DNA of 64,000 bases from Abditibacterium sp. (lineage in GTDB: Bacteria > Armatimonadota > Abditibacteriia > Abditibacteriales > Abditibacteriaceae). How positions within the stretch are numbered: position 1 is the stretch's first letter; each line of letters begins with the position of its first letter. A program made the translations under genes and the position numbers. Under the pieces are notes generated by a model, which had not been told where the DNA came from, searched no databases, and saw nothing but the letters and a program-made list of their open reading frames with translations. The DNA is taken from positions 768,001 to 832,000 of the forward strand of contig OZ251992.1 in NCBI GenBank assembly GCA_965246885.1, read 5' to 3'. This document shows, one piece after another, positions 7,946 to 63,936 of the stretch.

Positions 7946-8113
7946 GATTCCTCGGAAGAAGCACCTGCTTCTTCGCTCCAGACACCGAATTCCCTCGAAG
8001 AAGCGGGTAACTTTTTGGAAGGATTGCCTACTTCTTCGAGGGAATTCGCTAACTCAACCGATGACCCACGTACCTCTTTCGTGGGCGTGGCTAATTGGCC
8101 GGGAAATTAAGCC
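7946..8113. repeat. Intergenic degenerate 21-nt-period array (8 units) containing an 18-bp inverted repeat
   Basis: Units such as gattcctcggaagaagcacct, aattccctcgaagaagcgggt, acttcttcgagggaattcgct; IR at 7986-8003 / 8031-8048. Confidence 0.7.
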
Positions 8114-8152
8114 GCTCCCCACTTGATTTACCTTGTTCGATACTAAAAATTG

Positions 8153-9094
8153 ATGAGCACTGTTCCGCTTTGGGCGTGGGTAGCCTTTCACGCCGCCGTT
8201 TTTGCGGTGTTGGCGCTGGATGTGGGGGTGCTCAATCGCGGCGCCAAGGTGCCGTCGGTGAGGAACTCATTGGGGTGGACGGGGTTTTGGGTGGCGTTGT
8301 CGCTTGGGTTTTGCGCGCTGCTGCACGGACAACTGGGCGCGGCCAAGGCGGGCGAGTGGCTGTTGGCGTATGTGCTCGAATACGCGCTGAGCGTGGACAA
8401 CATCTTCGTGTTCATCGTGGTGTTACGCTTTTTCGCCGTGCCGCCAGTGCGTCAACACAAAGTGTTGCTGTGGGGCATCGTGAGCGCGTTCTTTTTGCGG
8501 GCGGCGATGCTTCTCGCGGGCACGGCGGTGATCGCGCGCTTCGCGTGGGTGGAGGTGCCCTTCGGCGCGTTCCTTGTGTACACCGCGTGGAAGCTGGCGT
8601 TCGGGTCGGATGTGCAGGTCGAACCCGCGAAGAACCCGGCGTTGCGGGCATTGCGACGCGTGGTGCCGGTGGCGGATGCGTATGACGGCGGGCACTTTTG
8701 GACACTCGACAACGGGCGCCGCGCGGCGACACCGTTGCTGGCGGTGCTACTCGTTATTGAAACAACGGACGTCTTGTTCGCGCTCGATTCCATCCCCGCG
8801 ACGCTCTCCGTCGTCAAGTCGCGCGACCTGTTCGTGGCGTATACGGCGAACATCTGCGCGATTTTGGGGCTGCGCTCCTTGTTCTTCGCCGTCGCGGGGG
8901 TAATGGGGCTGTTCCGCTTCCTCAAATACGGGTTGTCGCTTGTCCTCGCGTTCGTGGGCGCGAAGATGCTGCTGCGCTTCGCCTTCCATGTGGATTTCCC
9001 GACGTGGGCATCGTTGCTGGTCATCGCCACGATTTTGGCGGGAAGTGTGTTGCTATCCGTTTTGCGCCCGGAGCCGCCGAGCGGCGTCTCTTAA
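8153..9094 (+). CDS. TerC/Alx family metal homeostasis membrane protein
   Basis: YVLEYALSVDNIFVF, QHKVLLWGI, ATPL, ETTDVLFALDSIPA, TANICAILGLRSLFF. Confidence 0.93.
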   Translation: MSTVPLWAWVAFHAAVFAVLALDVGVLNRGAKVPSVRNSLGWTGFWVALSLGFCALLHGQLGAAKAGEWLLAYVLEYALSVDNIFVFIVVLRFFAVPPVRQHKVLLWGIVSAFFLRAAMLLAGTAVIARFAWVEVPFGAFLVYTAWKLAFGSDVQVEPAKNPALRALRRVVPVADAYDGGHFWTLDNGRRAATPLLAVLLVIETTDVLFALDSIPATLSVVKSRDLFVAYTANICAILGLRSLFFAVAGVMGLFRFLKYGLSLVLAFVGAKMLLRFAFHVDFPTWASLLVIATILAGSVLLSVLRPEPPSGVS

Positions 9095-9097
9095 GCT

Positions 9098-9877
9098 ATG
9101 AAATGGGTCTTGGGGACGGTGCCGTATCTCAACGCCTTGCCGCTCATTTGGGCGTTGGAGCGGCGCCCAGACGTTCAGTTGGTGCGGCTGTTGCCGTCGC
9201 AGTTGGGCGCGCGACTGGGGGGTGGGGAGTTGCACGCATCTCTCTCGCCGGTCTTCGACGTGCTGTCGGGGGTGGGCGAAAGCGTGTTGGGCGATGGCAT
9301 CGTGGGCGCGACGCGGGAGGTGCGTTCGGTGCTGCTCTTTCACCGGACGCCCATCGAAGCGATGCAAAGCGTGGCGCTGGATGCCAGTTCGCACTCATCG
9401 GTCAACCTGACGCGGGTGCTCCTGCGCGACTTTTACCGCGCCGTACCGCGTTTTGCCGATGCCAAGCCGAACTTAGCGAATATGCTTGCGCACCACGACG
9501 GCGCCGTTCTGATTGGCGACCCCGCCCTCGAAGCGGCGCAGGTGGCGGGTGACTGGGAAGTGCTCGACTTGGCACGCGCGTGGCACGACTTCACCGGCCT
9601 GTCGTTCACTTTTGCGGCATGGACGGGGCGGCGCGGACTGGCGGACGGAGAAGCGCGGGAACTGGCGGCGTTGCTGAACGAGGCGCGCGATGTGGGCGTG
9701 CGAAGCGTAGCGGACATTGTCGCCGCGAACCCGACGCGCTCGCCGCTTCCGGCGCCGGTGCGGGCGTCGTATCTGACGGACGCCATCGAGTATCGGCTCA
9801 CTCCCGCACACGAGGCGGGGCTACGCGAATACGCGCGGCGCCTCGACTTGCCGTTTCCGCGTTTACTTGGGGGGTGA
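9098..9877 (+). CDS. mqnA: Chorismate dehydratase (futalosine menaquinone pathway)
   Basis: GTVPYLNALPL, VRSVLL, DASSHSSVNL, LIGDPAL, DLARAWHDFTGLSFTFAAW. Confidence 0.88.
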   Translation: MKWVLGTVPYLNALPLIWALERRPDVQLVRLLPSQLGARLGGGELHASLSPVFDVLSGVGESVLGDGIVGATREVRSVLLFHRTPIEAMQSVALDASSHSSVNLTRVLLRDFYRAVPRFADAKPNLANMLAHHDGAVLIGDPALEAAQVAGDWEVLDLARAWHDFTGLSFTFAAWTGRRGLADGEARELAALLNEARDVGVRSVADIVAANPTRSPLPAPVRASYLTDAIEYRLTPAHEAGLREYARRLDLPFPRLLGG

Positions 9878-10692
9878 AAACTGCTCCAAAGACCAACCTT
9901 CTCACCGTCAAACCCGGCCACAAGCTGCGCCTCAAAGATGTGGACGCTTCAGCCAAGGGCGCCTACAAAGCCAAAGATGACACCCGCGACCGGCTGGACG
10001 CCCTCCTTAAGCGGCGCGACGCCTTGCAAGAGCGGCTCTACGCCGAAGGCAAGCAAAGCCTGCTCGTCGTGTTCCAAGCGATGGACACCGGCGGCAAAGA
10101 CGGCGCCACCAAGCACCTCTTGGAAGGCCTGAACCCCGCCGGTTGCACCGTCTCCGCGTTCAAAGCGCCCACCAGAACCGAGATGGCCCACGACTTCCTG
10201 TGGCGCATCCACGCCGCCACGCCCGAAAAGGGCTTCATCGGCGTGTGGAACCGCTCGCACTACGAAGATGTGCTCATCGCCCGCGTGCATGAGCTTGTGC
10301 CCGAACAGGTCTGGCGCGCGCGTTACCGCCAAATCAACGACTTCGAGGAGATGCTGTCCGAAACCGGCACCACCATCCTCAAGTTCTACTTGCACATTTC
10401 CAAAGACGAGCAAAAGGCCCGCTTGGAAGCGCGCTTGGCCGACCCCGACAAGCATTGGAAGTTCAACGTCGCCGACCTCTCCGAGCGCAAGCTGTGGGAC
10501 AAATACCAAGCCGCCTATGAGGATGCCGTCAACGAGTGCTCGACAGAGTTCGCGCCTTGGCACGTCGTCCCCGCCAACCACAAGTGGGCGCGCGACATCG
10601 CCGTCGCCGAGCGCGTCAACGCCGCGTTGGAGGCGATGAACCCGCGCTTTCCCGACATCCACTTCGACCCGAAAGCGGTCGTTGTGGAGTAG
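9874..10692 (+). CDS. ppk2: Polyphosphate kinase 2 family protein
   Basis: FQAMDTGGKDG, FKAP, HDFLWR, WNRSHYEDVL, KFYLHISKDEQ; GTG start overlaps the mqnA TGA. Confidence 0.93.
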   Translation: MKTAPKTNLLTVKPGHKLRLKDVDASAKGAYKAKDDTRDRLDALLKRRDALQERLYAEGKQSLLVVFQAMDTGGKDGATKHLLEGLNPAGCTVSAFKAPTRTEMAHDFLWRIHAATPEKGFIGVWNRSHYEDVLIARVHELVPEQVWRARYRQINDFEEMLSETGTTILKFYLHISKDEQKARLEARLADPDKHWKFNVADLSERKLWDKYQAAYEDAVNECSTEFAPWHVVPANHKWARDIAVAERVNAALEAMNPRFPDIHFDPKAVVVE

Positions 10693-10704
10693 AGCGTCGG
10701 GGCT

Positions 10705-11550
10705 TCAATACTCCTTTTGCGCGACATCCAGTGGAATCCCATCGCCGGGGAAAGTCGGCGGGATGGGCTGCAAGATGCGGCGGCGCTCCGGGGTAAGCGA
10801 CGCGAGGAACTCCGTCGGATAAACGTAGCCAAAGCGCGAGGCGCCCCAAATGGGGCCGTAGCGGTAGATGGTGACGCGGCGCTCGCCGGGGTTGACGCGG
10901 CTCGAACCGCCGTGCATCAGGCCGTCGGCGAACAAGAGGGCGTCGCCTTTGTCCATGTGGAGCGGGATGGCGCCTTCGAGGGCGTCCATGCGAGCGCCGC
11001 CGTGATAATCGCCGTGACCGGGGTGCGGGAAATGGGATTTGTGCGAGCCGGGAATAACCATCGTCGGGCCGTCGCCTTCGTGTACGTCGGAGACGGCGAG
11101 GATGATATTGATTTGGCCGCAGCGAAACACGCCGTCCTCGTAGCGGTATTTGCCGCGCGAGGCGCCCCGATAGCCGCCAGAGTGCACCGGGTGGTGCCCG
11201 CCGCTTTCGCGGATGGAAGCGATGGACTCGTCAATGAACAGCCCCGCGACGTAGGAGTGCTCTTCGCCGCCGTAGTGCCGCACGAGTTCGATCCACGCGG
11301 GGTGGTCTATCAATTCCGCGAATGGTTCGCCAAGGGTGACGGCTTGGTGAAGTTCCATGCCGGTGTGGGGGTTGTAGTCGCGGCGCTGGGCGGCGCCCAG
11401 CCATGCGCCGATGGGCAAGTCGCGCGGAAACTCGTCGAAGCGCGCGTTGAGTCGGGCCAGCAAGTCGGCATCGGCGGCGCCCTTGAGAATTAAAAAGCCG
11501 TTGAGGTCGAAGAAGAAATCGTCGCGCGCGTTGGGTTGGCGGGTCTGCAT
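10705..11550 (-). CDS. Phytanoyl-CoA dioxygenase (PhyH) family Fe(II)/2OG enzyme with H-S-G in place of H-x-D
   Basis: FDLNGFLIL, LIDHP, HSGG, DGPTMVIPGSHK, GDALLF..GLMHG, RR. Confidence 0.82.
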   Translation of the reverse strand: MQTRQPNARDDFFFDLNGFLILKGAADADLLARLNARFDEFPRDLPIGAWLGAAQRRDYNPHTGMELHQAVTLGEPFAELIDHPAWIELVRHYGGEEHSYVAGLFIDESIASIRESGGHHPVHSGGYRGASRGKYRYEDGVFRCGQINIILAVSDVHEGDGPTMVIPGSHKSHFPHPGHGDYHGGARMDALEGAIPLHMDKGDALLFADGLMHGGSSRVNPGERRVTIYRYGPIWGASRFGYVYPTEFLASLTPERRRILQPIPPTFPGDGIPLDVAQKEY

Positions 11551-11631
11551 AGTGTTGAATTCCAATACAGCACACATTTTAGCGCGCCCAAACGCTTCTG
11601 TTTCGCACGCGTCCCTAAAGTTTCTCCCGTA

Positions 11632-11682
11632 TCCTCAGCGCAAAGCCGCGCTTCGAAGGGAAGTGCGGCTTTGCGCTGAGGA
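11632..11682. terminator. Long hairpin (about 23-bp stem) between co-oriented genes
   Basis: tcctcagcgcaaagccgcgcttc / gaagtgcggctttgcgctgagga. Confidence 0.55.
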
Positions 11683-11693
11683 GTTGGCGACCT

Positions 11694-12254
11694 TTACGAA
11701 TACGGAATTGCCGTTACCGACGGCTTCGCTCCAGTCGTGATGGGGGCCGTCGTTGCCGTTGGTTCCGGTGTTGTGGTGGGCGCCGATGTGGGCGTGGCGG
11801 TCGGACGTGGCGTCCTTGTGGGTTCCGGCTGTCTCGTCGGGCGCGGGGTGTGCGTCGCGTGTGGTATGCAGGTCGGGCGCGGGGTGGGGGTCACGCTTGG
11901 ATCGGGAGTCGGGCGCGGCGTACGCGTTGGCTCTGGCTGTCTGGTTGGACGCGGCTTGTGCGTTGGCTCCGGTGCTTCCGTTGGATGGGGGGCGTGCGTC
12001 GGGCGCGGAGTGGGCGTCACGTTCGGGTTGGGCGTCGGACGCGGGGTGCGCGTCGGGCGCGGGGTGCGCGTCGGGCGCGGCGTGCGGGACGGTTCAGGCG
12101 AGTGTTGCGGACGCGGCGTCAACGTGTTGGCGCCCGCGCTGTTCCCGTCACCGTCTGGGTGCGCGAAAGAAGCGCCGACGGCGAAAACGGATAGTGACAA
12201 GGCCATCCCTGTCGCCAGCAGAACCGAAGATTGCGTTTGTGCGCGGTTTTTCAT
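11694..12254 (-). CDS. Secreted Pro/Thr/Arg-rich repetitive protein with no visible folded domain
   Basis: Signal-like N-terminus, then TPRP/PTRQPEP repeats; SD-like gagga upstream on the minus strand. Confidence 0.7.
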   Translation of the reverse strand: MKNRAQTQSSVLLATGMALSLSVFAVGASFAHPDGDGNSAGANTLTPRPQHSPEPSRTPRPTRTPRPTRTPRPTPNPNVTPTPRPTHAPHPTEAPEPTHKPRPTRQPEPTRTPRPTPDPSVTPTPRPTCIPHATHTPRPTRQPEPTRTPRPTATPTSAPTTTPEPTATTAPITTGAKPSVTAIPYS

Positions 12255-12284
12255 AATGGTTGGATACGTCTTCCTCTATTTACC

Positions 12285-12887
12285 TCAATTCGCTGCCCGA
12301 TGCGATAGTTTCTCCAAAACTAAACGATTCTCCCGATAACGACGCGCCAAGAACTGTTGCATCCCGCTTGGTAGCGTCTTCCAATCGGCGCGGCCCGTTG
12401 GCGCGTAGAAGGGGTTGTAATCGGCGGGCGGCGGGGTATGGGTATGCGGTCGGTGGCGTGGCGGCGGTCCATCCCCGTCGCGGGGCGGGCGCCCCCCCCA
12501 TTCGTCACCTCGCGGCGGCCCCTCGTGGCCTTCCTCGCGCGGCGGGCGGCGGTTGGGACTTACGCCCGTGACCGCTTCCACTTTCTGCGCCAGTTGCCCC
12601 GCTTGCATGTCGCTCATCGTCGGGCGCACGGCCCAAGGTTTCACCAGCGATACCAACTGCCGCGCTTGCGCTTTGGACAATTCGTTTGGGCCGCGCTCCA
12701 ACCGCTCGGCTTCGTGCCATGCATGATCGAGTCTCCCCTTGGGGCCGTGATGGTGCGGCCCGCGCGGGTGTCCTCCCTCGTGCGGCGGCGGGCCGTCATC
12801 GGGAAGCGGTTGCGCGCATGCAAACGGCGCACGAGTGCCTAACAACAAAGGAGCGGCGAGGGCGAAAATGAGCGAAAGTCGTTGCAT
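12285..12887 (-). CDS. Secreted His/Pro/Gly-rich protein; possible CpxP/ZraP-like accessory protein
   Basis: Signal peptide MQRLSLIFALAAP; GPHHHGP; helical LSKAQARQL core; divergent from the CpxRA-like pair. Confidence 0.65.
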   Translation of the reverse strand: MQRLSLIFALAAPLLLGTRAPFACAQPLPDDGPPPHEGGHPRGPHHHGPKGRLDHAWHEAERLERGPNELSKAQARQLVSLVKPWAVRPTMSDMQAGQLAQKVEAVTGVSPNRRPPREEGHEGPPRGDEWGGRPPRDGDGPPPRHRPHTHTPPPADYNPFYAPTGRADWKTLPSGMQQFLARRYRENRLVLEKLSHRAAN

Positions 12888-12976
12888 CGGAAGGCGCCCC
12901 AAAGCGGCGCCTTCTAATCTTCACCATTTTGCCACAACGGAAGGCGAAGCGGGGGTTAATCCCTCTTGGGCGGCGC

Positions 12977-12991
12977 GTAAGATTTCTTAAG
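12977..12991 (+). promoter_or_regulatory. Putative OmpR/CpxR-type binding box
   Basis: GTAAG-N5-TTAAG, resembling the CpxR GTAAA-N5-GTAAA box, between the divergent genes. Confidence 0.45.
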
Positions 12992-13037
12992 CACCTCCTT
13001 ACGGAACGCCCGCGCCGCTCGGCCTACACTGGCAGAC

Positions 13038-13766
13038 ATGGAAGAACGAGAAAACGTGTCCGTCCTCATCGTGGACGACGACGTGAAACTGGGCGACTTG
13101 GTGCGCGAGTATTTGAAGCGCGACGGCATGGACGCGCACCTGATCCACGACGGCGAAAGCGGCCTCGCGCGCGCGCAAAGTGGCGACTACCAAATCGTCG
13201 TCCTCGACGTGATGCTCCCCGGCATCGGCGGTTTTGAAGTCTTGCGCCGTTTGCGCGCGTCGGGCACGTCCACCGCGAAGTTGCCCGTCTTGATGCTAAC
13301 CGCGCGCGGCGACGAACTCGACCGCGTTCTGGGCCTTGAAATGGGCGCCGACGACTACCTCGCCAAGCCCTTTTCGCCGCGCGAATTGGTCGCGCGCTTG
13401 CGGGCCATCTTGCGCCGCGCGAGCGGGCAGGGGTTTGCCTCCGACGACGCGTCCACCAAAGTGTTGCGCGTGGACGACCTCGAACTCGACGCTGGAGCAC
13501 GCGCCGTGCGGCGCGACGGCAAGCGAGTTGACCTGACCGGCGCCGAGTTCGACCTGCTTCGGTTACTCTTGCAAAGCGCCGGGAAAATCGTGGCGCGCGA
13601 GGAAATCTCCCGCGTGGCACTGGGCCGTGAACTGATGCCCTTCGACCGCGCCATAGACGTGCACGTGTCCAACCTGCGGCGCAAAATCGGCCCCGCCGCC
13701 GACGGGAGTGAGCGCCTCAAAGCCATTCGCGGCGTCGGCTACTTGTTCGCGCGCGCCGATAATTAG
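13038..13766 (+). CDS. OmpR-family response regulator (CpxR-like)
   Basis: LIVDDD, LDVMLP, MLTARG, GADDYLAKPF; winged helix ending RAIDVHVSNLRRK...IRGVGY. Confidence 0.95.
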   Translation: MEERENVSVLIVDDDVKLGDLVREYLKRDGMDAHLIHDGESGLARAQSGDYQIVVLDVMLPGIGGFEVLRRLRASGTSTAKLPVLMLTARGDELDRVLGLEMGADDYLAKPFSPRELVARLRAILRRASGQGFASDDASTKVLRVDDLELDAGARAVRRDGKRVDLTGAEFDLLRLLLQSAGKIVAREEISRVALGRELMPFDRAIDVHVSNLRRKIGPAADGSERLKAIRGVGYLFARADN

Positions 13767-13866
13767 GGGAAGAGGTTGGATGCCAAAAGTTAGAGTGGCC
13801 CCTCTGTGTCCACACCGCCTCGCGCTACTTCCTTCTCTTAACCTCTCGTTTCTAACCTCTTCTGTC

Positions 13867-15375
13867 ATGCGGACGCTGTTTTGGAAAATCTTCGCGTGGT
13901 TCGGCGCGGCGCAACTGCTCATTGTCGTCGCGCTGTATCTGCTCGCGTCCGCCACTCAACGTGGCTTCGACCGGGGGCTGGTGCGCACCGTCGGGCAAAG
14001 CCTCGAAGCCCGCTCGCGCGCGGCAGCGGTGGCCTACGAGTTGGGCGGCAACGCGGCTTTACAAGAAGCGTGGCATGCGCGCCCGTCGCACCCCGACGGG
14101 CCACCTCCCGATGATAGCCCGCCGCCGCCGCGCTTTGACGGCGACTCTTCGCCGGGGCCAGCGCCCAAAACTCTTTTCGATGGAGGCGGGCGCCCCGATG
14201 GGCCGCACGGCGGCCCGGACGAGCGCCGCTTCGCGTCGTTGTTCGTGTGGCGTAAAAGCGCGTCCACTCTGCTGATTGGCCCCGGCGTTCCCCCGGATGC
14301 GGCAGGCGTCATTACAGACGCCTTCCAAGCGGGCGAAGCCGTCAGCGACGCGGGCGGACGCTCGTTGTTGGCGCGGCGCGTGCAAACCGATTCCGGCGCG
14401 CTCTACGTCGGCGTTCAGCGCATCAACACGCGCGGTCACGCGTTCGGGCCGCTCCTTCAGTGGCTGCGGCTTGACGCCATGATGCCGATCCGCTTCGGCA
14501 TGGTCGCGGCCTTGATGGGCGCGCTGTGCTTTGGCTTGGCGCGTTACCTGTCGGCGCCTGCCCGCACCCTCGCCGGAGCCACTCGTCAACTGGCCGACGG
14601 CGACCTCTCGACCCGCGTCGGCGCCAAGATGGGCAGGCGCCGCGATGAATTAGCCGACTTGGGCCGCGACTTTGACGCGATGGCCGCGCGCATCGAAGAA
14701 CTCGTCGGCGCCCAGCGCCGCTTGCTTTCCGACATCTCCCACGAACTGCGCTCTCCGCTTGCGCGCCTCAACGTCGCTCTGGAATTGGCGGGAGACTCGC
14801 CCCCCGACGAAGCCGCCCGCTACCACGAGCGCATCCGCGAAGAAAGCGCCGAACTGGACGCCATGATCGGCCAACTGCTGTCGCTCCAGCGCCTCGAAGC
14901 CCACGAAGCCCCCATCGAACGAACGCCGCTCGACCTCGCCGCTTTGGTCAAGGGCATCGCCGATAACGTCGCTTTTGAAGCGCGCGGGCAGGGCACCGAA
15001 GTCGAAGTGCGCCGCCTCGACGCTTGCCAAATGACCGGTGACGCCGCCCTGCTCAAAAGCGCCGTGCAAAACGTGGCGCGCAACGCGGTTCTTCATTCCG
15101 GCCAGAACTGCGTCCACATCGCCCTCGAACGCAACGGCAACGAGGCCCTGCTGTGGGTGCGCGATTTTGGCCCCGGCGTGCCCGACGACGCCCTTGGCAA
15201 AATCTTCGACCCCTTCTACCGCGTCGCGTCCGCCCGCGACCGGCAAAGCGGCGGGACGGGCTTGGGCTTGTCCATCACCAAGCGCGCCGTCCAAGCGCAC
15301 GGCGGAAGCGTGCGCGCCCTCAACGTCCCCGATGGCGGCGGCTTGCGGGTTGAAATCCGCCTGCCGTTACACTAA
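13867..15375 (+). CDS. Membrane sensor histidine kinase (CpxA-like; HAMP, HisKA, HATPase)
   Basis: MRTLFWKIF, DELADLGRDF, SDISHELRSPLARL, NVARNA, DFGPGV, GGTGLGL. Confidence 0.93.
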   Translation: MRTLFWKIFAWFGAAQLLIVVALYLLASATQRGFDRGLVRTVGQSLEARSRAAAVAYELGGNAALQEAWHARPSHPDGPPPDDSPPPPRFDGDSSPGPAPKTLFDGGGRPDGPHGGPDERRFASLFVWRKSASTLLIGPGVPPDAAGVITDAFQAGEAVSDAGGRSLLARRVQTDSGALYVGVQRINTRGHAFGPLLQWLRLDAMMPIRFGMVAALMGALCFGLARYLSAPARTLAGATRQLADGDLSTRVGAKMGRRRDELADLGRDFDAMAARIEELVGAQRRLLSDISHELRSPLARLNVALELAGDSPPDEAARYHERIREESAELDAMIGQLLSLQRLEAHEAPIERTPLDLAALVKGIADNVAFEARGQGTEVEVRRLDACQMTGDAALLKSAVQNVARNAVLHSGQNCVHIALERNGNEALLWVRDFGPGVPDDALGKIFDPFYRVASARDRQSGGTGLGLSITKRAVQAHGGSVRALNVPDGGGLRVEIRLPLH

Positions 15376-19020: not shown

Positions 19021-19146
19021 TTCTGGCATCGGGGGACAGAAGAAATTCTAACGATTTTCGCCGTTCGTTACCGGAAGAATACCTCCCCGCATCCCATGAT
19101 TTCCTCCCGCCATGCGACGGCGGACGTCTCTCGTCGCGCTACCGCC
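19021..19146. repeat. Highly degenerate 21-nt-period intergenic tract upstream of smc
   Basis: cctccc at 19082 and 19103; contains cggaagaat and gacggcggacgtct, which occur in the other arrays. Confidence 0.4.
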
Positions 19147-29559: not shown

Positions 29560-29740
29560 CAACGGTTAATTTATGCGCGCCGACCGTCCACGCGCCTAAT
29601 TCTTCCGCCCACGCGCCTATTCTTCCGCTCACTTGTGTGATTCCGCCGTTGACGCAGCTAACTCTTTCCTTGGCACGCCTAATTCTTCGGAAGAATTACG
29701 TGTATGGACGGAAGAATTAAGCCGTTCATGGAGGTAATCT
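29560..29740. repeat. Intergenic 21-nt-period array that inverts at a palindromic junction
   Basis: ccacgcgcctaattcttccgc, ccacgcgcctattcttccgc, tggcacgcctaattcttcgga, then reverse-complement ggaagaatta units. Confidence 0.75.
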
Positions 29741-44430: not shown

Positions 44431-44600
44431 GACAGACCGCAATCGCCGCCCCGCCGACGCACGCCGACGAACGACAGACGTCGGCGTGCCGCTCCGGGAC
44501 GTCGGCGGACAAAGGACAGACGTCTGTCACTGAGCGGCGGACGTCTGTTACTGAGCGGCGGACGTCTGCCACTGAGCGGCAGACGTCTGTCACCGCGTCG
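44431..44600. repeat. Intergenic 21-nt tandem repeat (about 8 units) with a palindromic GACGTC core
   Basis: GACGTC at 44477, 44498, 44519, 44540, 44561 and 44582; near-perfect units gacgtctgtcactgagcggcg. Confidence 0.9.
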
Positions 44601-53635: not shown

Positions 53636-53695
53636 ATTCGGTACGGTTGCGTGCGTGCTTCGTGCCATCCGGAGAAGAATCGCGGTGTCACGGGC

Positions 53696-54418: not shown

Positions 54419-54444
54419 GTGAGAAAAATCGGCAGCGCGGCGCT

Positions 54445-56382: not shown

Positions 56383-56417
56383 TTGCGGTTGGTCATCCAG
56401 ATTTCGCTGTTGAAGCG

Positions 56418-57275
56418 TTATTTCAACACCAGACCCGCATCGGTAAAGCGCATCCGTTCAGGCGAGATGTTGAACGCTTGTTTCAAGTTGTCGCGCGCGA
56501 GGGAGCGGCCCAGTTTGATCGTCTTCTCGTCGTGGTGCTGCCCGCCCGCGACGACGGTGAACTCTGCCATAACAGGCCAGATTAGCAGAGTCTCATACGT
56601 CAGTTGCTTGTCGTGATCGTTTAGCACCGCAAAGTTCTGATCCCTCAAGAGCAGGCCGCGCACTTGTTCGCGGAGCGCCTTCGTTTGCGCTTCAGTGGGC
56701 GGTGTGGGCGGGCCTTTGCGATGCAAATTAGTAAGCGCCACTTCGCGCGACACCGTCAGGTAATACGACACCGCGCGCGACACATCGTTCATTTGCAGGC
56801 TTTTGTCGGGGTTCTTCGAGAGGTCTCCCTTGGCGGCCTGCAAGCAGAAGTTCAGAAACTTCTCGGCCTCGGCGGGATCGCCCTTGCCCGCGATGGCGCG
56901 GGCGAACAGTTTGGGCGCGAGCGAGGGCGCAACCGGCTTGAACAAAAGCACCGACGCGGGCGCTTTGGGCGCGGGTTTATCCGTCGAAGCGGCGCCTTCG
57001 GGTGCGGCGGTTTGGCCTCGCCCCCTTTGCTGCGAACGCTCCGACCGCGAACGCTCTATCGCTTGATCCACAAGCAAGTCCGTCGTTCGTTGGTCGCCTT
57101 GCCGAACCACGTTGAAATAGTCGTTCCAACGCTGCGTCTGGTTTTCAAAGAGTTGCGATTGGCTCCAGGGATTGTATTCGTAGTTGCCCGTAGAAGGGTT
57201 GAAACTGGTATCGGCGCGCGCCATCGGCGTCAGCGATAGCAAGACAAGTGCGCCCAAAAGAAGTTGACGTTTCAT
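56418..57275 (-). CDS. Secreted helical protein, DUF6683-like (paralog of 57290-58141)
   Basis: Signal peptide; NDVSRAVSYY, LNDHDKQLTYETL, C-terminal PERMRFTDAGLV. Confidence 0.65.
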   Translation of the reverse strand: MKRQLLLGALVLLSLTPMARADTSFNPSTGNYEYNPWSQSQLFENQTQRWNDYFNVVRQGDQRTTDLLVDQAIERSRSERSQQRGRGQTAAPEGAASTDKPAPKAPASVLLFKPVAPSLAPKLFARAIAGKGDPAEAEKFLNFCLQAAKGDLSKNPDKSLQMNDVSRAVSYYLTVSREVALTNLHRKGPPTPPTEAQTKALREQVRGLLLRDQNFAVLNDHDKQLTYETLLIWPVMAEFTVVAGGQHHDEKTIKLGRSLARDNLKQAFNISPERMRFTDAGLVLK

Positions 57276-57289
57276 AGATTTGCTTGCTC

Positions 57290-58141
57290 CTACGAGATGA
57301 CGAGTCCCCCCTCGTCGAAGGCCAAGCGCTTGGGGTCAACGCCGACCATGCCTTTGAGATTGATGTCGGCAAGCCCGCGAAAGCCCGTCTTGACTTGCTC
57401 GCGCTTGGAAGCTTCCAACTTGGGCGCGACGTTCTCGATGCCGTAGTCCACCAAGAAGGTGAGAATAACGAGGGTTTCGTTCATCTCCTGCTTTTGCGCG
57501 TTGCTCAGGGCGCGAAACGACTTATCTTCCGATAGCGCGGTGCGAATCTTGCCGCGCAGGGCGCCGATTTGCGCTTCGCTGGGAAGCGTGCCGGAGCGGT
57601 GGTAGTAGTTGGCCGCGATGCAAAACGCAAGAGTGCGCGCGATGTCGGTCGCGGGCGCGTTCAGTTGCTTCGAGCGGTCTTTATAGCCGTTCACGAAAAT
57701 GGTAAACAGCTTCTCAAAGGCGGCGCGGTTCTCCGGGTGCTTGGTGCCATCGGCAAAGGCGGCGGCCAAACGCGCGGGCATCACAGATTTTCCGGTGTGA
57801 TACATGGTGCCCTGATACTTGGCGAAGCGCACCGCCTCGGAACGCTCGCGCACGGGTATGGCTTTAAGGCGCGCCGCGCGGCGGCTTGAAGCGGAACTGT
57901 GGGAACCGGCGCGACTATGAATGCGCGATTCCGCCATGAGCAATTGGGAGTTCATCAGCGAGTTGCTGTAAATCCGGTTGATGTTCGACTGGTAGATCTG
58001 GGTCATCGTGTTGTTATACGGGTTGACCCAGCCGCTCGAATAATAGTTGTTGCTCATGTCCAACTGGGCCTGAGCGCGTGGCGCGAGGACGCCCACCAAC
58101 AGCGTACCGCTCAAAGCGGCGGCGAAGAGAGACTTGTTCAT
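57290..58141 (-). CDS. Secreted helical protein, DUF6683-like (paralog of 56418-57275)
   Basis: Signal peptide; TDIARTLAF, LSNAQKQEMNETL, C-terminal PKRLAFDEGGLV. Confidence 0.65.
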   Translation of the reverse strand: MNKSLFAAALSGTLLVGVLAPRAQAQLDMSNNYYSSGWVNPYNNTMTQIYQSNINRIYSNSLMNSQLLMAESRIHSRAGSHSSASSRRAARLKAIPVRERSEAVRFAKYQGTMYHTGKSVMPARLAAAFADGTKHPENRAAFEKLFTIFVNGYKDRSKQLNAPATDIARTLAFCIAANYYHRSGTLPSEAQIGALRGKIRTALSEDKSFRALSNAQKQEMNETLVILTFLVDYGIENVAPKLEASKREQVKTGFRGLADINLKGMVGVDPKRLAFDEGGLVIS

Positions 58142-58154
58142 GGTAAAAGTCTGG

Positions 58155-58712
58155 TCAGACGTTGCGCACTGCTCCATCGAGAAGACACATCCACACCAAC
58201 TGGTCGGCGACGCCCTTGGTGTTCACGTTTTTGTGGGCGAAGCGAAACGCATCTTGCATGGCGCGCAGGCTCGCTTCCGTTTGGCGCCCAAATACGCCGT
58301 CGAGTGCCACAGAAGGCGGGGCCGGTTCGTAACTGGTATTGTTGAGGAGGGTTTGCAGGGCGCGCACTGCATCGCCGCTCGCGCCGCGCCGCAATGTTGG
58401 GCAGAGCGCCGCCCACGTTTTTGGCCCGACCACGCCGTCGGCGCTCAAGCCGTGCGCGCGCTGGAACTTCTTCACGGCGGCTTCGGTTTGCTGTCCAAAC
58501 GTGCCGTCCACGTCGCAACGATAGCCGCGCGCCCGCAACAGATATTGCAGCGCGCGAATGGTGTTGTCAAAGGCTTCGGTATCCGAATGTCTCGAAAGGC
58601 GCGGCCACTGCGTGTCCCTTTGCGCGCGTGCGCAAGGCGTGAAGTGAGGCGCAAGCACACTCGGCGCCAGAAGAGACGCGCCCACAAGAAATAGAAGGTG
58701 TCGTTTCATCAT
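58155..58712 (-). CDS. Secreted protein made of two peptidoglycan-binding (PGBD) domains
   Basis: ALQYLL..GY...VDGTFGQQTEAAVKKFQ...GL.ADGVVGPKTW; second LRRGASGDAVRALQ...DGVFG. Confidence 0.88.
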   Translation of the reverse strand: MMKRHLLFLVGASLLAPSVLAPHFTPCARAQRDTQWPRLSRHSDTEAFDNTIRALQYLLRARGYRCDVDGTFGQQTEAAVKKFQRAHGLSADGVVGPKTWAALCPTLRRGASGDAVRALQTLLNNTSYEPAPPSVALDGVFGRQTEASLRAMQDAFRFAHKNVNTKGVADQLVWMCLLDGAVRNV

Positions 58713-58768
58713 GTCCCTTTCAAACGGTTCGCCTTTATAGCTGCAAACCGAAAGCCAATCCCGTCATA

Positions 58769-59365
58769 TTATAATTCCCGGCGCCCCCGGAGCGCCCCGG
58801 CAATGGTCACTTGGTCGGCGTAATCCAAGTCGCCGCCAAAAGGGAGGCCGCGCGCGAGTTGGGTCACTTTGACGCCGTGCGGGTCGAGGGCGCGGGCGAC
58901 GAGGCTGCCCGTCGTTTCGCCTTCGACAGTCGGGGACAAGGCGAGGATAACCTCACTGATGGATTCTTTGGGAAGGCGGACAACCAATTCGCTGATGTGG
59001 AGCTTTTCTGGCCCGATGCCTTCAAGTGGGTTGAACAGGCCGCCCAAGACGTGATACCTGCCGAAGAACTCGTTGGAGTTTTCGATGGCCAAGACATCGC
59101 GCGCTTCGGCAACGACGCACAAGAGGCCGTTTTCGCGCTTGGGGCTGGCGCAGATGTCGCAGATCTCCACGTCGGTGAAGTTGCCGCAGTTGTCGCACGG
59201 GCGGATTTTGGCCTTCACGTCGCGGATGGCGCCCGCCAAGTCTTCGTTCTGCTGTTTGTCACGGCGCAGGAGCGCAAACGCAAGGCGCTGCGCCGACTTT
59301 GGCCCGACGCCGGGGAGCTTTTCGAGTTCGTAGAGCAGGGCTTCGAGGGGGCGGGGATAAAGCAT
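58769..59365 (-). CDS. recR: Recombination mediator RecR
   Basis: LPGVGPKSAQRLAF, C4 zinc finger, YHVLGG, TOPRIM, EGETT, GGDLDYAD. Confidence 0.98.
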   Translation of the reverse strand: MLYPRPLEALLYELEKLPGVGPKSAQRLAFALLRRDKQQNEDLAGAIRDVKAKIRPCDNCGNFTDVEICDICASPKRENGLLCVVAEARDVLAIENSNEFFGRYHVLGGLFNPLEGIGPEKLHISELVVRLPKESISEVILALSPTVEGETTGSLVARALDPHGVKVTQLARGLPFGGDLDYADQVTIAGALRGRREL

Positions 59366-59377
59366 TTCGGGTCGCCA

Positions 59378-59448
59378 AAGAACCCAGAGCGTAAGCGACA
59401 GGCACGCACAAGTGTTTAGCGTGCCCGTCGCTTACGCTCTGGGTTCTT
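59378..59448. repeat. REP-like 30-bp inverted repeat between ybaB and recR
   Basis: aagaacccagagcgtaagcgacaggcacgc / gcgtgcccgtcgcttacgctctgggttctt with one mismatch. Confidence 0.8.
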
Positions 59449-59773
59449 AGAAAATGCCCTTGGGAAGGGAACCCATCAGGCCTGCGGGCATGGCGGCGTT
59501 CATTTTGTCGGTCTTGTGCTTTTCGGCTTTGTCGGCGGCTTCGCGCAGGGCCGAGACGACGAGGTCTTGCAGCATCTCGATGTCGGAGGGGTCAACGATT
59601 TCGGGGGCGAGCTTGATGTCGAGGATTTCGCCTTTGCCGTTGGTCGAGATTTTGACCATGCCGCCGCCGGAGGAGGTTTCGAGGCGGGTGTTTTCGAGTT
59701 CTTCTTGGGCACGCGCCATGTCTTCTTGCATCTTTTGAACTTGCTTTTGTAAGCCGGGAATGTTGGGTAGCAT
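59447..59773 (-). CDS. ybaB: YbaB/EbfC nucleoid-associated protein
   Basis: QKMQ..M..AQEEL, SGGGMVK, DIEMLQDLV; directly upstream of recR. Confidence 0.95.
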   Translation of the reverse strand: MLPNIPGLQKQVQKMQEDMARAQEELENTRLETSSGGGMVKISTNGKGEILDIKLAPEIVDPSDIEMLQDLVVSALREAADKAEKHKTDKMNAAMPAGLMGSLPKGIF

Positions 59774-59845
59774 TGATGTTCCTTGGAAACGCGCCCAGTT
59801 TAACTACGCGCGGCGCAAAGGCCCAAACTAAGGAGTAGATTTCTT

Positions 59846-61180
59846 ATGGCTCATTTCCGCTACGAAGGGTTCGACCAACTGGGCAAAGCGCGGCGCGGCA
59901 CCGTTGAGGCGGGCGACCAGAACTCCGCACTCGTCGGCATCCGCTCGCAAGGCGTCAACCCCACGCGCGTCGAACCCATCGCCGCGCCCGTTCCGCGTCC
60001 CCGCCCGCAAGTCGCGCCCTTCGCCCCGCCCCCCGAAGTCGAAGCGCCCTTGCCCGAAGCGCCGCAACGCTTTATTCCCGGCACGTCCGGCTCGCGGCCC
60101 AACCCCGGCACGAGCGCTTCAGCCATGCTCCCGCGCCAGCCGCTTTTGCGCTGCAACTCCCGCGACATGGCGCTTTTCTACCGCAACATGGCTTCGCTTA
60201 TCAACGCTGGAACCGGCATCGGTGCAGCCTTGAAATCTATGTCAACGGCGGCGTCCAACGGCGCGCTGCGCCGCGCGTGCGCGCAAATGGCGGAGCGCTC
60301 CATGACCGGCACGCCGATGAGCGACATGATGCCCGCCTTCCCCGGCGTCTTTTCGCCGTTGCAAAATGGCATCGTCGCGGCAGGCGAGCGCGGCGGCCTC
60401 CTTGTCGCCGCGTTTGAGCGACTTGCTAACTATTGCGAGCGCGATCACGAACTGCGGACGATGGTGATAGGCCAACTGGCTCATCCCGGAATCGTTGCCA
60501 TCGCTGCGCTTTTTATTCCCTCCATCGTCACCCTCGTGCTGCTGGGCGGGCACGCTTGGGCGGTGGGCATGGTGCCGGTCATCGAACGCATCGTGGCCTT
60601 CATTCTGCTGCTCGTTGTGTGGCACTACGCTAAGCCTTTCGTTCCCTCTGAGAATCCCGTTAAGGCGGTGTGGGATCGGGTGCGCCTTCAAATTCCTGTC
60701 TTCGGGCGGGTCGTGCGTAGCTTGGCCACCGCCAAGTTTTGCCGTTCGTATGGCGCGCTTTATAGTGCGGGCGTTGGCCCCGGCGAAGCAATTCGGCTTT
60801 CGGCGGTGGCGTGTGGAAATATGGCTATCGGCACGGACTCGGTAGCGCAAATTTCCAACATTGAAAAAGGAAGTTCGCTCACTCAAGCACTGCGTTCAAC
60901 CAACCACTTCCCGCCATTGTCTTTGCAGATGATGCAAATCGGCGAGCAGACGGGCGACATTGACACCTCAATGGACAAAGTCGCTGATTTCTTGGAGCAG
61001 GACGCCGAATCTGCCATCCGCAGAGCTATTCCCTTGATAGGCATTTTGATGCTCCTGTTTGTGGCTTACTTCCTTGTGCTGCCGCAATTGAAGCAGATGG
61101 TCGAGTTCATCAGCAAAATCTACGACAACGCCGCTGACCCTGATGGTTCGTCAACGACCCCAACTTTTGGCGCACAGTAA
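59846..61180 (+). CDS. Type II secretion system F / PilC family inner-membrane platform protein
   Basis: FRYEG.D..GK..RG.VEA, ASLINAG, AGERGG.L, IPVFG, IGEQTGDID; SD aaggag. Confidence 0.9.
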   Translation: MAHFRYEGFDQLGKARRGTVEAGDQNSALVGIRSQGVNPTRVEPIAAPVPRPRPQVAPFAPPPEVEAPLPEAPQRFIPGTSGSRPNPGTSASAMLPRQPLLRCNSRDMALFYRNMASLINAGTGIGAALKSMSTAASNGALRRACAQMAERSMTGTPMSDMMPAFPGVFSPLQNGIVAAGERGGLLVAAFERLANYCERDHELRTMVIGQLAHPGIVAIAALFIPSIVTLVLLGGHAWAVGMVPVIERIVAFILLLVVWHYAKPFVPSENPVKAVWDRVRLQIPVFGRVVRSLATAKFCRSYGALYSAGVGPGEAIRLSAVACGNMAIGTDSVAQISNIEKGSSLTQALRSTNHFPPLSLQMMQIGEQTGDIDTSMDKVADFLEQDAESAIRRAIPLIGILMLLFVAYFLVLPQLKQMVEFISKIYDNAADPDGSSTTPTFGAQ

Positions 61181-61972
61181 ATGAGCAACGACGACCCATA
61201 CTTCGTTTTAGGCGTGGCGCGCACCTGTTCCGGGGAGGAACTCAAGCTCGCTTACCGCAAGTTGGCGCGCGAGAACCACCCCGACATGGCGCGCGACAAA
61301 GGGGCCGCCACCATCCGTATGACGCGCATCAATGCGGCGTGGGCGCTGGTCGGCGACCCACAAAAACGCTCCGCGTTCGATGCGCGCTGGCGTTTGGACG
61401 AACTCGACCGCGCCCGCCGCGCCGAGCCAATCCGCGCCGCCAGCGTTCCCAAACCCCCTGCGCCGCCCCCATCCACCCCAACTAAAACCGCCCCGCCGCC
61501 GCGACCGCCCAAAGCCGAAGCGCCCCCGCCCGCACCCCCCCAAACCAAATCGAAAGCCGCCCCGCGCCGCCCCGCGTCGGTTTCGACCGGTGCCGCCCGC
61601 CACGCGCGCTTGGCCGAAGCCTCCCGCCTCCTCTTCAAACAGAACAAGCCCAACGAGGCGCTCGACGTGTGCAAGTCCATCCTCAAAAGCGACTTCCGCA
61701 ACATCCCCGCGCGCGAACTGATGGGCGAAGCCTACCTGCGCTTGGGCCAAACCGACCGCGCCCTCGCCGTCTGGGAGCAAGCCCTCGTGCTCGCGCCCGC
61801 CAACATTACCCTGCGCCGTCGCTGGCTCAGCCTCATGACCCCCGAAACCCGCGCCGTTTACGAGCAAAGGGTCGCCTTGCCCAAGTCCGCTCCCGTTGCC
61901 ACTAACCTGCCGCGCCCCAAAACTTCGCCCAGTCTCCTCTCGCGGCTGGTGGGGAAACTCAAGCGGCGTTAG
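61181..61972 (+). CDS. J-domain protein with Pro-rich linker and TPR
   Basis: DPYFVLGV, AYRKLARENHPD, INAAW; C-terminal TPR (MGEAYLRLGQTDRA). Confidence 0.88.
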   Translation: MSNDDPYFVLGVARTCSGEELKLAYRKLARENHPDMARDKGAATIRMTRINAAWALVGDPQKRSAFDARWRLDELDRARRAEPIRAASVPKPPAPPPSTPTKTAPPPRPPKAEAPPPAPPQTKSKAAPRRPASVSTGAARHARLAEASRLLFKQNKPNEALDVCKSILKSDFRNIPARELMGEAYLRLGQTDRALAVWEQALVLAPANITLRRRWLSLMTPETRAVYEQRVALPKSAPVATNLPRPKTSPSLLSRLVGKLKRR

Positions 61973-62002
61973 GGCGTGGAACGCCGCACCATACTCTAAC
62001 CA

Positions 62003-62908
62003 ATGTTCCCCCTGTCCATCTTCGCCCGCAAAAAGGCCGACAAAATCCCGCTTGCAATGGTCGCCCTTTCCGACGCGCCGTCCGCTCAAATCGCGTGCGA
62101 CGCGGGGCTGGACGCCCTGCTTGTGGGCGATTCTTTGGGCAATACCGCGCTTGGTTTCGATTCCACTCTCCCCGTCACGATGGACATGATGGCGCACCAT
62201 CTCGCCGCCGTCGTGCGCGGCGTCAAAGCCTCCGCGCGCCCCGACACGCCCATCATCGCCGATATGCCCTTCGGCTCCTATGCGACGGTGGATAAGGGCG
62301 TCGAAAACGCGGTGCGCTTGATGCAAGGGGGCGCGCACGGCGTGAAAATTGAATCACCGCCTCTGTCTCTCACACACTCTATGTTGTTGCCTTTGTATGC
62401 TGCTCTGCGCTCGACGGGCGTTCCGGTGATGGGGCATATTGGCTTCACGCCACAATCGCAACTCGCTCTGGGCGGCGTCGTGCAAGGCAAAACGGCGGAC
62501 GAGGCTCTCTCCCTGCTCACCCAAGCCAAGTTCGTGTCGGCATCGGGATGTTTCGCCGTTGTCTTGGAAGCCACCACCGAGGAAGTGGCGAGCAAGATCA
62601 CCGACTGGCTTCCCTGCGCTACCATCGGCATCGGCGCCGGTAACGGTTGCGATGGGCAGGTGTTGGTGTGGCACGACTTAGTGGGCATTTCGGCACGGAC
62701 TTTGAAGATGGCCAAAGCCTACACTGACACGCGGCAAAATTGGCTGGATGCTCTGGCCCAATACAAGCGCGAAGTCGAGGGCAAAGCGTTCCCCACCACC
62801 GACAACAGTTGGCACATGGCGCCCGACGAGCGGGAACAGTTTGTGCAACTGCTGGAAGGTGAATGGGAAAAGGATTTCGGAGCTTCCGACCCCTTCGCCA
62901 ATGACTGA
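62003..62908 (+). CDS. panB: 3-methyl-2-oxobutanoate hydroxymethyltransferase
   Basis: LVGDSLG, ADMPFGSY, VKIE, MGHIG, IGIGAG..CDGQVLV.HD. Confidence 0.95.
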   Translation: MFPLSIFARKKADKIPLAMVALSDAPSAQIACDAGLDALLVGDSLGNTALGFDSTLPVTMDMMAHHLAAVVRGVKASARPDTPIIADMPFGSYATVDKGVENAVRLMQGGAHGVKIESPPLSLTHSMLLPLYAALRSTGVPVMGHIGFTPQSQLALGGVVQGKTADEALSLLTQAKFVSASGCFAVVLEATTEEVASKITDWLPCATIGIGAGNGCDGQVLVWHDLVGISARTLKMAKAYTDTRQNWLDALAQYKREVEGKAFPTTDNSWHMAPDEREQFVQLLEGEWEKDFGASDPFAND

Positions 62909-63767
62909 ACTCCCCATGCACCTCTTCTCCGACCCGCGCGCGATGCAGCGCCAGTGCGCCGCTTGGCATTGCCAGAGCCAAACGATTGGTTTCGGGCCGA
63001 CAATGGGCGCGCTTCATGCCGGACATTTGGCGCTGGCCCGCCGCGCCAAGGCGGAAAATGATCGGCTGGTGGCGTCCATCTTCGTCAATCCCGCACAGTT
63101 CGGCCCGCACGAGGACTTGAATCGCTACCCGCACCCGTTCGAGCGTGACTGCGAACTGTTGCGCGAGGCCGGTTGCGACGCCATCTTCGCGCCGACCAAG
63201 GAAGCGATGTATGGCGACACCGACTTCCGGCACGGCACGTGGGTGGACGTGACGCCCTTCGATGAGATGTGGGAAGGCGTGACGCGCCCCGGCCATCTGC
63301 GCGGCGTGGCGACGGTCGTGACCAAGCTGTTCAACATCTGCGCCCCGACGCGCGCTTATTTTGGTGAGAAAGATTTTCAACAGCTACGCGTCGTGCAAGC
63401 GCTCGTGCACGACCTCAATTTCCCAACCGAAGTCGTGCCGTGCGAGACTATTCGTGAAGCCGACGGCTTGGCGCTGAGCAGTCGCAATGCATATCTTTCG
63501 CCCGACGAGCGGCAAAGCGCGGCGGTGATTTTCCGGGCAATGCAAGCCGGGAAGCAACTGGCCGGGGTCGGCGAGAAATCCGTCGCCCGCATCGGCGAGG
63601 AGATTGGCCGCGTGTTGCAAAGCGAGCCGGAACTCAAGCCGCAATACGTGGCAGTTGTGGACGCCGACAGGCTCGCGCCCTTGCGCGAACTGACCGGCAC
63701 CCCCGCGCGCATCCTGTTTGCGGGACACTTGGGCAAAACGAGGTTAATTGACAACTTAGCGCTGTAG
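62901..63767 (+). CDS. panC: Pantoate--beta-alanine ligase
   Basis: PTMGALHAGH, SIFVNPAQF, RPGH, FGEKDFQQ, DGLALSSRN, RLIDN. Confidence 0.97.
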   Translation: MTELPMHLFSDPRAMQRQCAAWHCQSQTIGFGPTMGALHAGHLALARRAKAENDRLVASIFVNPAQFGPHEDLNRYPHPFERDCELLREAGCDAIFAPTKEAMYGDTDFRHGTWVDVTPFDEMWEGVTRPGHLRGVATVVTKLFNICAPTRAYFGEKDFQQLRVVQALVHDLNFPTEVVPCETIREADGLALSSRNAYLSPDERQSAAVIFRAMQAGKQLAGVGEKSVARIGEEIGRVLQSEPELKPQYVAVVDADRLAPLRELTGTPARILFAGHLGKTRLIDNLAL

Positions 63768-63789
63768 TTCTGCGATTCCCGCAACCCGG

Positions 63790-63936
63790 CGGACGATTCG
63801 CGTGCGCGCGCGGACGGAAGAATTAGGTGCGCGGACGAAATAACTGGTTGCGCCGACGAAAGAATTAGGCGCGCGGACGGTTCGCCGGTGTGGGCGGATG
63901 CTCCGCCGATGACGGCGGACGAGAAAACTACCTCTG
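63790..63936. repeat. Intergenic 21-nt-period array (7 units) with a conserved CGGACG anchor
   Basis: cggacg/ccgacg/cggatg at 63790, 63811, 63832, 63853, 63874, 63895 and 63916; units contain gaagaattagg. Confidence 0.85.

Follow-up and report, generated by a model that had tools for sequence, protein, structure and literature searches.

What are the short, regularly spaced repeats found between genes at five places in this part of an Abditibacteriaceae genome, and do the five belong together? A preliminary description of the window, the whole 64-kb stretch of DNA that was analysed, had read them as one dispersed family of intergenic arrays built on a 21-nt register. Indeed, all five tracts lie where that description placed them, between genes, and none is assigned to a strand. 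Identity at a lag of 21 nt was compared with 5000 shuffles of each tract, for which the mean was 0.25-0.28. The strongly dyad-symmetric array at 7946..8113, between divergent ychF-like and terC-like genes, reaches 0.41; the array at 29560..29740, of the GAAGAATTA sub-family, with a GDSL lipase gene on one side and a serA-like gene on the other, reaches 0.46; the array at 44431..44600, of the GACAGACGTCTGTC sub-family and located between genes for a PAS histidine kinase and a LuxR-type regulator, reaches 0.60; and the array at 63790..63936, which lies downstream of panC, belongs again to the GAAGAATTA sub-family and is oriented opposite to that at 29560, reaches 0.59 (p=0.0002 for each; TRF period 21 for the last two). 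The array at 19021..19146, which lies upstream of smc and is a degenerate member of the CCTCCCCGCA sub-family, has a weak register: its lag-21 identity is 0.34 (p=0.03), and a different lag reaches 0.41.

The sequences that had been quoted as common to these tracts are also present: the core occurs as CGCCTAATTCTTC at 29593 and 29676 and as GGAAGAATTAGG at 63816, the sequence GAAATTAAGCCG that ends the 7946 array occurs at 8103, and its counterpart GAATTAAGCCG at 29714. A further shared string, GGCGGACG, is found too, but seven of its 12 matches in the window fall outside the arrays, so that it is weak evidence alone. The 29560 and 63790 arrays have 11 10-mers in common, other pairs of the five 0-3. 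When compared with arrays elsewhere in the genome, all loci but 7946 share 15-22 11-mers (20 for 29560; 22 for 19021, in common with two other loci) against a null 99th percentile of 11, whereas 7946 shares three, inside the null. Judged by such shared words, four window loci are assigned to genome-wide sub-families and 7946 is periodic but weakly linked; the five are not one sequence family. No letter of the 29560 and 44431 arrays differs in contigs of two public runs (X1 and X2, from one study and possibly the source sample), and these contigs, which drop rare variants, contain no length variants of either array. Scanning the window for Rfam families and tRNAs gave no matches; with units that are recurrent mosaics and no Cas family among the 63 window ORFs, a CRISPR array is ruled out, as had been anticipated.

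Across the 3.56-Mb genome (G000) we identified 274 arrays whose period is exactly 21 nt, corresponding to one per 13 kb and about 1.1% of the sequence. By lag, 273 arrays were counted at 21 nt as compared to two at 20 nt and one at 22 nt. The recurrence of 8-mers over the whole genome is likewise concentrated at lag 21, with 6110 occurrences as compared to 498-839 at lags divisible by three but not by 21 and 114-242 at the remaining lags (64-66, attributed to CRISPR, were left out), and the step spectrum of 8-mers in intergenic arrays has 4020 steps at 21 nt and 1088 at 42 nt, as compared to 31 at 41 nt. Neither an absence of lag-21 enrichment nor a lack of similarity between loci was therefore found, and the arrays are confirmed as real and far more numerous than the five window loci. 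Among 327 arrays there are 2410 sequence links, as compared to 32-47 in column-permuted controls, and 267 of the 327 form the largest linked component. They divide into 18 communities of 2-79 loci each and 46 singletons, with motifs that are specific to sub-families; even the commonest 12-mer is present in 35 of the 327. Dyad symmetry at p<=0.05 was detected in 74 of 192 intergenic arrays, and both orientations are mixed within single arrays. The tetranucleotide CGTC was found within the central palindrome of one sub-family. The suggestion of a lineage-specific dispersed repeat is borne out by the main-family pattern, which has 190 matches in G000 and none in 20 of 26 family relatives; its ten matches in the relative G010 are located on a contig that matches G000 at 97-99% identity.

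Most arrays (186 of 274) are intergenic, an enrichment of p=2e-99 relative to gene calls made in the present analysis. Together with the palindromic units and the numerous arrays in upstream regions, this enrichment is what one might expect of sequence-specific operators for a regulator or nucleoid protein that controls a large regulon. However, the relations of arrays to genes, 176 upstream and 187 downstream, show no upstream bias; 71 lie inside genes; their sequences are many and unrelated, are hypervariable between near-identical copies and, at one syntenic site, are absent from relatives. We therefore consider operators highly improbable. The neighbours of the arrays are mostly ordinary genes, and no paralog family other than large ordinary ones was enriched beside them. 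Among uncalled ORFs next to arrays, 21 candidates were inspected by eye and none was convincing. The arrays closest to the sole reverse transcriptase of the genome (C1:1313420) are about 3.4 kb away from it.

The arrays that reside within genes are in frame, and 39 of 68 such arrays share at least five 12-mers with intergenic arrays. For example, a urea carboxylase carries a loop 53 residues longer than in two orthologs, and this loop is made of array. Given that 21 nt equals seven codons, the in-frame arrays might encode hidden seven-residue repeat peptides under protein-level selection. Yet the codon-phase contrast (0.166) matches that of controls (0.167), as does the number of open frames (3.43 versus 3.31), a single array family is read in differing frames and strands in different genes, and 22-nt arrays exist as well. 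The missing codon-phase signal rules out coding heptads, to which we accord next to no credence; the arrays carry no codon signal and are non-coding.

Spread of the arrays to new sites is supported. At the 44431 site, the gap between the kinase and regulator genes is 143-185 nt shorter in four relatives (G002, G003, G010 and G012) and the array is missing. Change within arrays can be followed on the near-identical G010 contig (C24). This contig may represent an island that the two genomes share, or it may have been mis-binned from a close strain; the comparison is valid in either case. All three shared arrays differ there, by +126, -84 and -21 nt, which are exact multiples of 21. Units could have been miscounted in either assembly, but those of the third shared array are non-identical, which speaks against pure assembly collapse. 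In one array a 14-nt block was swapped in place for its own reverse complement, a micro-inversion. Where neighbouring units differ, however, exact inversions explain only six of the 822 blocks (none of 822 in two controls), which counts against the explanation favoured below. Whole-unit change is compatible with replication slippage. Inversion of a spacer is compatible with polymerase template switching between inverted repeats, as described in PMC8604942.

Two orphan genes have an array just upstream, P0002 at 47 nt and P0001 at 75 nt. Both encode a helical N-terminus, and for one of the two an FnIII C-terminus is shown: fold searches with the P0002 model matched only the FnIII half, with FnIII entries filling the match lists. 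P0001 may be FnIII-like as judged from Atlas look-alikes, its own model, built with no alignment, being unusable (pLDDT 39.9), and homology between P0001 and P0002 was not detectable (hhalign probability 0.4). Within the P0002 family, a lag-21 array is present at most 600 nt upstream in 38 of 48 full-length loci and downstream in one of 48; these loci are best hits across the phylum and include close kin, and so are not independent. Four of six P0001 relatives also have an upstream array, as does a Bacteroidetes locus (L083), and in the G299 sample an array found blind proved to be located upstream of a family gene. These home arrays mostly lie 30-150 nt before the start codon, and 26 of 43 gene-linked arrays have dyad symmetry at p<=0.05. 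Three genes with 22-nt arrays encode one long-branched protein clade (SH-aLRT 93 in a quick tree); this clade is a single event and could be the outcome of one indel sweep. In addition, home arrays have copies that lack a partner gene: three other G000 loci have 25, 21 and 9 9-mers in common with the P0002 array and the urea carboxylase insert has five, and the array of L079 has a copy in G053 amid ordinary genes, with 43 shared 10-mers. The PQLLE partner (NF052641) was rejected, its best score in the genome being 19.6 bits against a cut-off of 80.

Several observations temper the role of this protein. In this assembly the family profiles match P0002 alone at full length, and the large array families and most G000 arrays, including four window loci, are without a partner gene here. 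Among relatives sampled over 15-80 kb each, G157 has 16 profile matches and one doubtful array in 80 kb, and G056 has five matches and no array in 60 kb; since both are nearly array-free as compared to G000, dispersal does not scale with gene count. A Pfam search of 133 family members returned nothing above noise (three single-member hits) and no toxin or RNase family, no obvious catalytic motif was found in the partner protein, and its median net charge is -1. With most local families partnerless and no evident catalytic fold, the case for the protein as driver is weakened. Moreover, array similarity is 0.36-0.51 at 79-91% protein identity, as compared to a mean of 0.36 and a 95th percentile of 0.44 for unrelated pairs; array sequence thus approaches the unrelated level while proteins are still 80-90% identical, which argues against tight sequence recognition.

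These data bear on a protein-independent origin, in which the arrays are selfish or neutral minisatellites: slippage would keep the period, template switching would yield palindromes, ectopic conversion would spread copies, a 21-nt unit would spare both frame and helical phase, and the partner gene would only carry an array as its own regulatory element. The partnerless majority of G000 arrays, dispersal independent of gene count, variation between near-identical copies like that of ordinary VNTRs, tolerance of in-frame arrays in genes and the occurrence of the class in many phyla, as given in PMC8161180, all agree with it. Minisatellites leave unexplained, however, why the 38 of 48 family genes and L083 keep upstream arrays of the same period and unrelated sequence, and why period and protein clade shift together at 22 nt; frame neutrality, in turn, is irrelevant to the 186 intergenic arrays and to 22-nt arrays. 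We regard this origin as somewhat doubtful, if a serious contender.

The position of home arrays before start codons also raises the possibility that they act as RNA, either as a leader of repeats that is transcribed together with the gene and recognized by the gene product, much like a type III toxin-antitoxin array or a titrating multi-hairpin RNA, or, in the dispersed copies, by affecting mRNA stability as REPs do. Folding is stronger than that of shuffles in three of the five arrays of the window (z -2.6 to -6.7 with DNA parameters, the lowest at 7946). Against this, unit sequence is not conserved, orientations are mixed inside arrays, the 133 members include no Pfam toxin or RNase family, and a two-turn period is a B-DNA number; a simple scan of one locus revealed no terminator-like site between the array and P0002, where a type III toxin-antitoxin would have a terminator. 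An RNA role is unlikely.

A gene beside home copies further recalls REP, BIME and REPIN-RAYT systems which, as described in parts of PMC3733652 and PMC3116915, comprise dispersed palindromic mosaics, mainly extragenic but in some cases in frame within genes, whose home copies lie beside a cognate gene. The arrays might accordingly be REP/BIME-type elements amplified by REP-associated tyrosine transposases of this genome, which has five Y1_Tnp matches, and in 10 of 11 one-sided cases, tallied post hoc, the terminal half-unit points inward. But the partner gene is not an HUH transposase, and the repeats form tandem arrays that keep a fixed register, not hairpin doublets. The search for a linked transposase or nuclease, proposed at the outset, found none: RAYT flanks consist of other long hairpins with 4-26 copies of their own, and the seven flanks share at most three 11-mers with any array. 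Flank sequence thus rules out a RAYT as driver, and we hold amplification of this type to be very unlikely.

The explanation we favour, with about an even chance of being right, is that non-autonomous DNA arrays with a 21-nt step probably spread from home arrays in front of the helical-plus-FnIII gene, whose product would set or select the spacing. The arrays, non-coding and often dyad-symmetric, alter by gain or loss of whole units and by small inversions. With an odd period and dyad symmetry, symmetry axes recur at intervals of 10.5 bp and lie on one face of B-DNA. The protein is predicted to set or select this two-turn spacing, putatively forming a symmetric dimer or polymer along the array and reading spacing more than sequence. 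Copies would reach new sites through host recombination or template switching rather than through an enzyme of their own, and would be tolerated because 21n bases preserve reading frame and helical phase. The preliminary interpretation, which had left open phased binding sites, a non-autonomous element or structured RNA, is therefore partly supported: of the three, a non-autonomous element, made of DNA and with two-turn geometry, is now the best supported, phased binding by a protein is plausible, and structured RNA has no direct support. That description had overlooked how many loci there are (about 270), that they fall into several distinct sub-families, that some copies sit in frame within genes, and that a partner gene family exists.

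Plasmid iterons are direct repeats conserved together with a known DNA-binding fold. Like iterons and parC/parS centromere arrays, the arrays here are helically phased 20-22-bp repeats upstream of a possible binder gene, but they outpace the protein in sequence turnover, mix orientations and have copies all over the chromosome; repeat sequence was not found to be conserved alongside the adjacent protein (similarity 0.36-0.51). Small dispersed repeats of Nostoc are single units of 21-27 nt. Both these and Rickettsia palindromic elements (the latter mentioned in PMC3733652) are very small mobile repeats that preserve frame in genes, but they occur as single units rather than as multi-unit arrays of many sequences with one period. 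The closest precedent is a published class of bacterial tandem repeats of constant 20-21-nt size and variable sequence, whose function is unexplained (Subirana and Messeguer 2021, PMC8161180); its authors remark on two helical turns. As set out in the parts of that paper covered, the class has a fixed unit, several species-specific families per genome and a mostly non-coding location, all of which we find here (species specificity for one main-family pattern). The class is also described as having a short motif that most arrays of a species conserve; in G000, motifs are specific to sub-families. Its Table 4 lists 22-30 in the richest Bacillus genomes as compared to about 270 here, at differing detection thresholds; the term 'palindrom' is absent from its main text, and inversions, a partner gene and a period shift go unreported in the parts covered. 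No published description of the gene-array pairing was found in the literature searched, 2026 preprints included (section 2.3 of 10.64898/2026.10.21.760802), though an earlier one is possible. The arrays are a variant of the published class.

What causes exact 20-21-nt repeats of free sequence in unrelated bacteria was left open in PMC8161180. G000 is rich in such arrays and offers near-identical copies for comparison as well as a named candidate protein, and the clade with 22-nt arrays offers a natural control for whether the protein sets the period. A bolder and distinctly tentative proposal, which we think probably goes too far, is a protein-ruled repeat class in which the small helical-plus-FnIII protein measures two turns and in this way makes or preserves palindromic arrays whose sequence is nearly free, seeds copies chromosome-wide and into genes, and resets the period from 21 to 22 nt on divergence. 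If true, such a class would parallel REPIN-RAYT, though lacking a known transposase, and would supply the cause so far missing for bacterial constant-size 20-21-nt repeats. Whatever their origin, the arrays, through their coverage of this genome and the new loops they add to proteins, are a source of variation.

The five tracts of the window that the preliminary description placed on a 21-nt register do exist and sit between genes, as judged by our gene calls and Pfam. The window spans C1:768001-832000 of G000, a 3.56-Mb assembly of 62.5% GC in 2 contigs, for which a hexamer model of our own called 3079 genes (87% coding); intergenic status therefore depends on that model, with Pfam backing for the window. 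The register is clear in the arrays starting at 7946, 29560, 44431 and 63790 (lag-21 identity 0.41-0.60, p=0.0002) but weak in that at 19021 (p=0.03), which despite this has strong sequence in common with other arrays. The proposed common sequence held up as sub-family membership but not as one family, since at least three sub-families are represented, and the 7946 array has no significant link to any of them by 11-mer sharing. In contigs from two runs of a single study, the 29560 and 44431 arrays recur letter for letter. Elsewhere in the window, positions 5520-5833 and 11836-12086 hold ordinary Pro/Thr-rich coding linker repeats (period 6-60), unrelated to the arrays.

The 21-nt arrays are a real genome-wide feature. 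Recurrences of 8-mers number 6110 at lag 21, 4771 at lag 42 and 3434 at lag 63, as compared to 498-839 at other multiples of three, and a segment scan (score 20 or more) returned 273 arrays at lag 21, with 27, 2, 1, 18 and 14 at lags 18, 20, 22, 24 and 27, respectively. Merging left 274 arrays, which have a median length of 132 nt, cover 39.8 kb and are spread evenly over the genome; 186 are intergenic and 71 mostly coding. In a larger set of 327 arrays, obtained with a lower score cut-off, there were 2410 links by shared 12-mers versus 32-47 in controls preserving period and composition, and one network joins 267 of these arrays.

Units can be read as a pair of inverted 10-nt halves with one extra base, taken from a vocabulary that recurs, and dyad symmetry is significant in 74 of 192 intergenic arrays. 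The odd period combined with inverted halves places symmetry axes every 10.5 bp. Array ends tend to be capped by one inward-facing half-unit (10 of 11 one-sided cases), a feature chosen after looking. Neither a codon-phase signal nor an excess of open frames was seen in the arrays. Of 68 in-gene arrays, 39 have vocabulary in common with intergenic ones. The array in urea carboxylase forms a loop that exceeds its counterpart in two orthologs by 53 residues; the one in UvrA fills a variable loop with no length gain.

Presence at orthologous sites varies: in four other genomes (G002, G003, G010 and G012), the syntenic gap is shorter by 143-185 nt and lacks the 44431 array. A main-family search pattern has 190 matches in G000; 20 of 26 relatives have none and the others no more than 10. 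Samples of 15-80 kb, taken from 17 relatives, contained between 0 and 2 lag-21 arrays apiece, and some of these are 7-mer or coding repeats. Other fixed periods do occur in the genus, given 16-nt-period arrays in G004 and G006 (L041:4480-4576, L044:15580-15622 and the upstream flank of L012) and 7-nt repeats in other relatives.

A 32-kb contig, G010:C24 (L172-L173), is 97-99% identical to G000:C1:2505407-2525720, an island beside a large G000 CRISPR array, and carries a related CRISPR array with different spacers; the contig is either mis-binned or an island that both genomes share. The two have 15 kb in common at that level of identity and also a further block that contains an array, and all three common arrays differ in length (+126, -84 and -21 nt). 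In one, a 14-nt block between short inverted arms is swapped for its own reverse complement. The changes fit slippage and template-switch spacer inversion, the latter described in PMC8604942. Only 6 of 822 difference blocks between neighbours are explained by an exact inversion, so most variation is more layered.

Looking for a linked transposase was among the suggested checks. No such link emerged: five Y1 transposase (RAYT-like) matches (G000:C1:1930464-1930895, 10546-10974, 1335092-1335535, 567387-567800 and 1381397-1382014) share almost nothing with the arrays, and each has, at its flanks, long hairpins of a family of its own with 4-26 copies in the genome. They appear to be REPIN-RAYT systems of the ordinary sort, distinct from the 21-nt arrays. 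Two helical-plus-FnIII loci, L057 and L058 (G000:C1:1334880-1335828 and 526584), each adjoin a copy of one such hairpin family (about 26 loci genome-wide), and the orphan gene P0001 lies directly upstream of the corresponding RAYT gene; this may be chance. One reverse transcriptase gene (G000:C1:1313420-1314037; 531-aa frame) lies about 3.4 kb from two arrays, which sit in a 1.4-kb gene-free gap.

Two orphan genes have an array just upstream: P0002 (231 aa; C1:525622-526317), at 47 nt, and P0001 (214 aa; C1:1335829-1336473), at 75 nt. A third array stands ahead of a fragment resembling FnIII. Locus L059 (G000:C1:346474-347310) holds an array and, after it, two short FnIII-like C-terminal fragments around an inverted toxin-antitoxin-like gene pair, by our reading of the translations; it looks like a decayed partner gene. 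At E<=0.001 the P0002 family counts 569 representatives, and it has no consistent match in Pfam. The predicted structure of P0002 itself (pLDDT 95) has two halves, one helical, with a helix of 41 residues, and one of FnIII type. The 48 full-length loci examined, which are best hits from two 300-genome searches plus two locus searches, contain close kin and no partial matches. A lag-21 array lies no more than 600 nt upstream of the gene in 38 of them, and downstream in one. In a 53-protein tree, upstream arrays have period 21 in 39 cases, 22 in 3 and 17 in 1, with none in 9 and one protein without upstream sequence; the three period-22 arrays (L069, L094 and L117, in three genomes) belong to related proteins forming one clade. 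Of six P0001 relatives, four have an array, one has an assembly gap at the site and one falls below threshold. Gene-less copies of home arrays, those in front of such partner genes, are present elsewhere in G000 and in G053. At L071 (G259:C398), a 726-aa protein with no upstream array fuses two copies of the P0002-family helical N-terminal half to other domains.

The P0002 and P0001 products are candidate drivers, with putative array binding and dimerisation. Several points count against this role: the major G000 array families have no partner gene in the 93%-complete assembly, genomes with many copies of the gene have no visible excess of dispersed arrays, the P0002-family protein is not basic and showed no catalytic motif, the protein changes far more slowly than the array sequence, and the architecture common to P0001 and P0002 comes from separate lines of evidence only.

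Constant-size 20-21-nt repeats of variable sequence are described in many bacteria by Subirana and Messeguer (PMC8161180), whose account, in the part consulted, remarks on two helical turns and gives no function. The G000 arrays share most features of that class as set out there, and work partly like REPIN-RAYT systems, yet fall outside REPIN-RAYT membership. Our literature searches, whose coverage of relevant papers is incomplete, found no printed account of the gene-array pairing. The G000 arrays belong to a known, unexplained kind of repeat. To this kind the genome adds the density of its arrays, their dyad structure, copy-number changes and an inversion observed directly, the colonisation of genes in frame, gene-less copies of a home array and a shift of period that goes with one protein clade.
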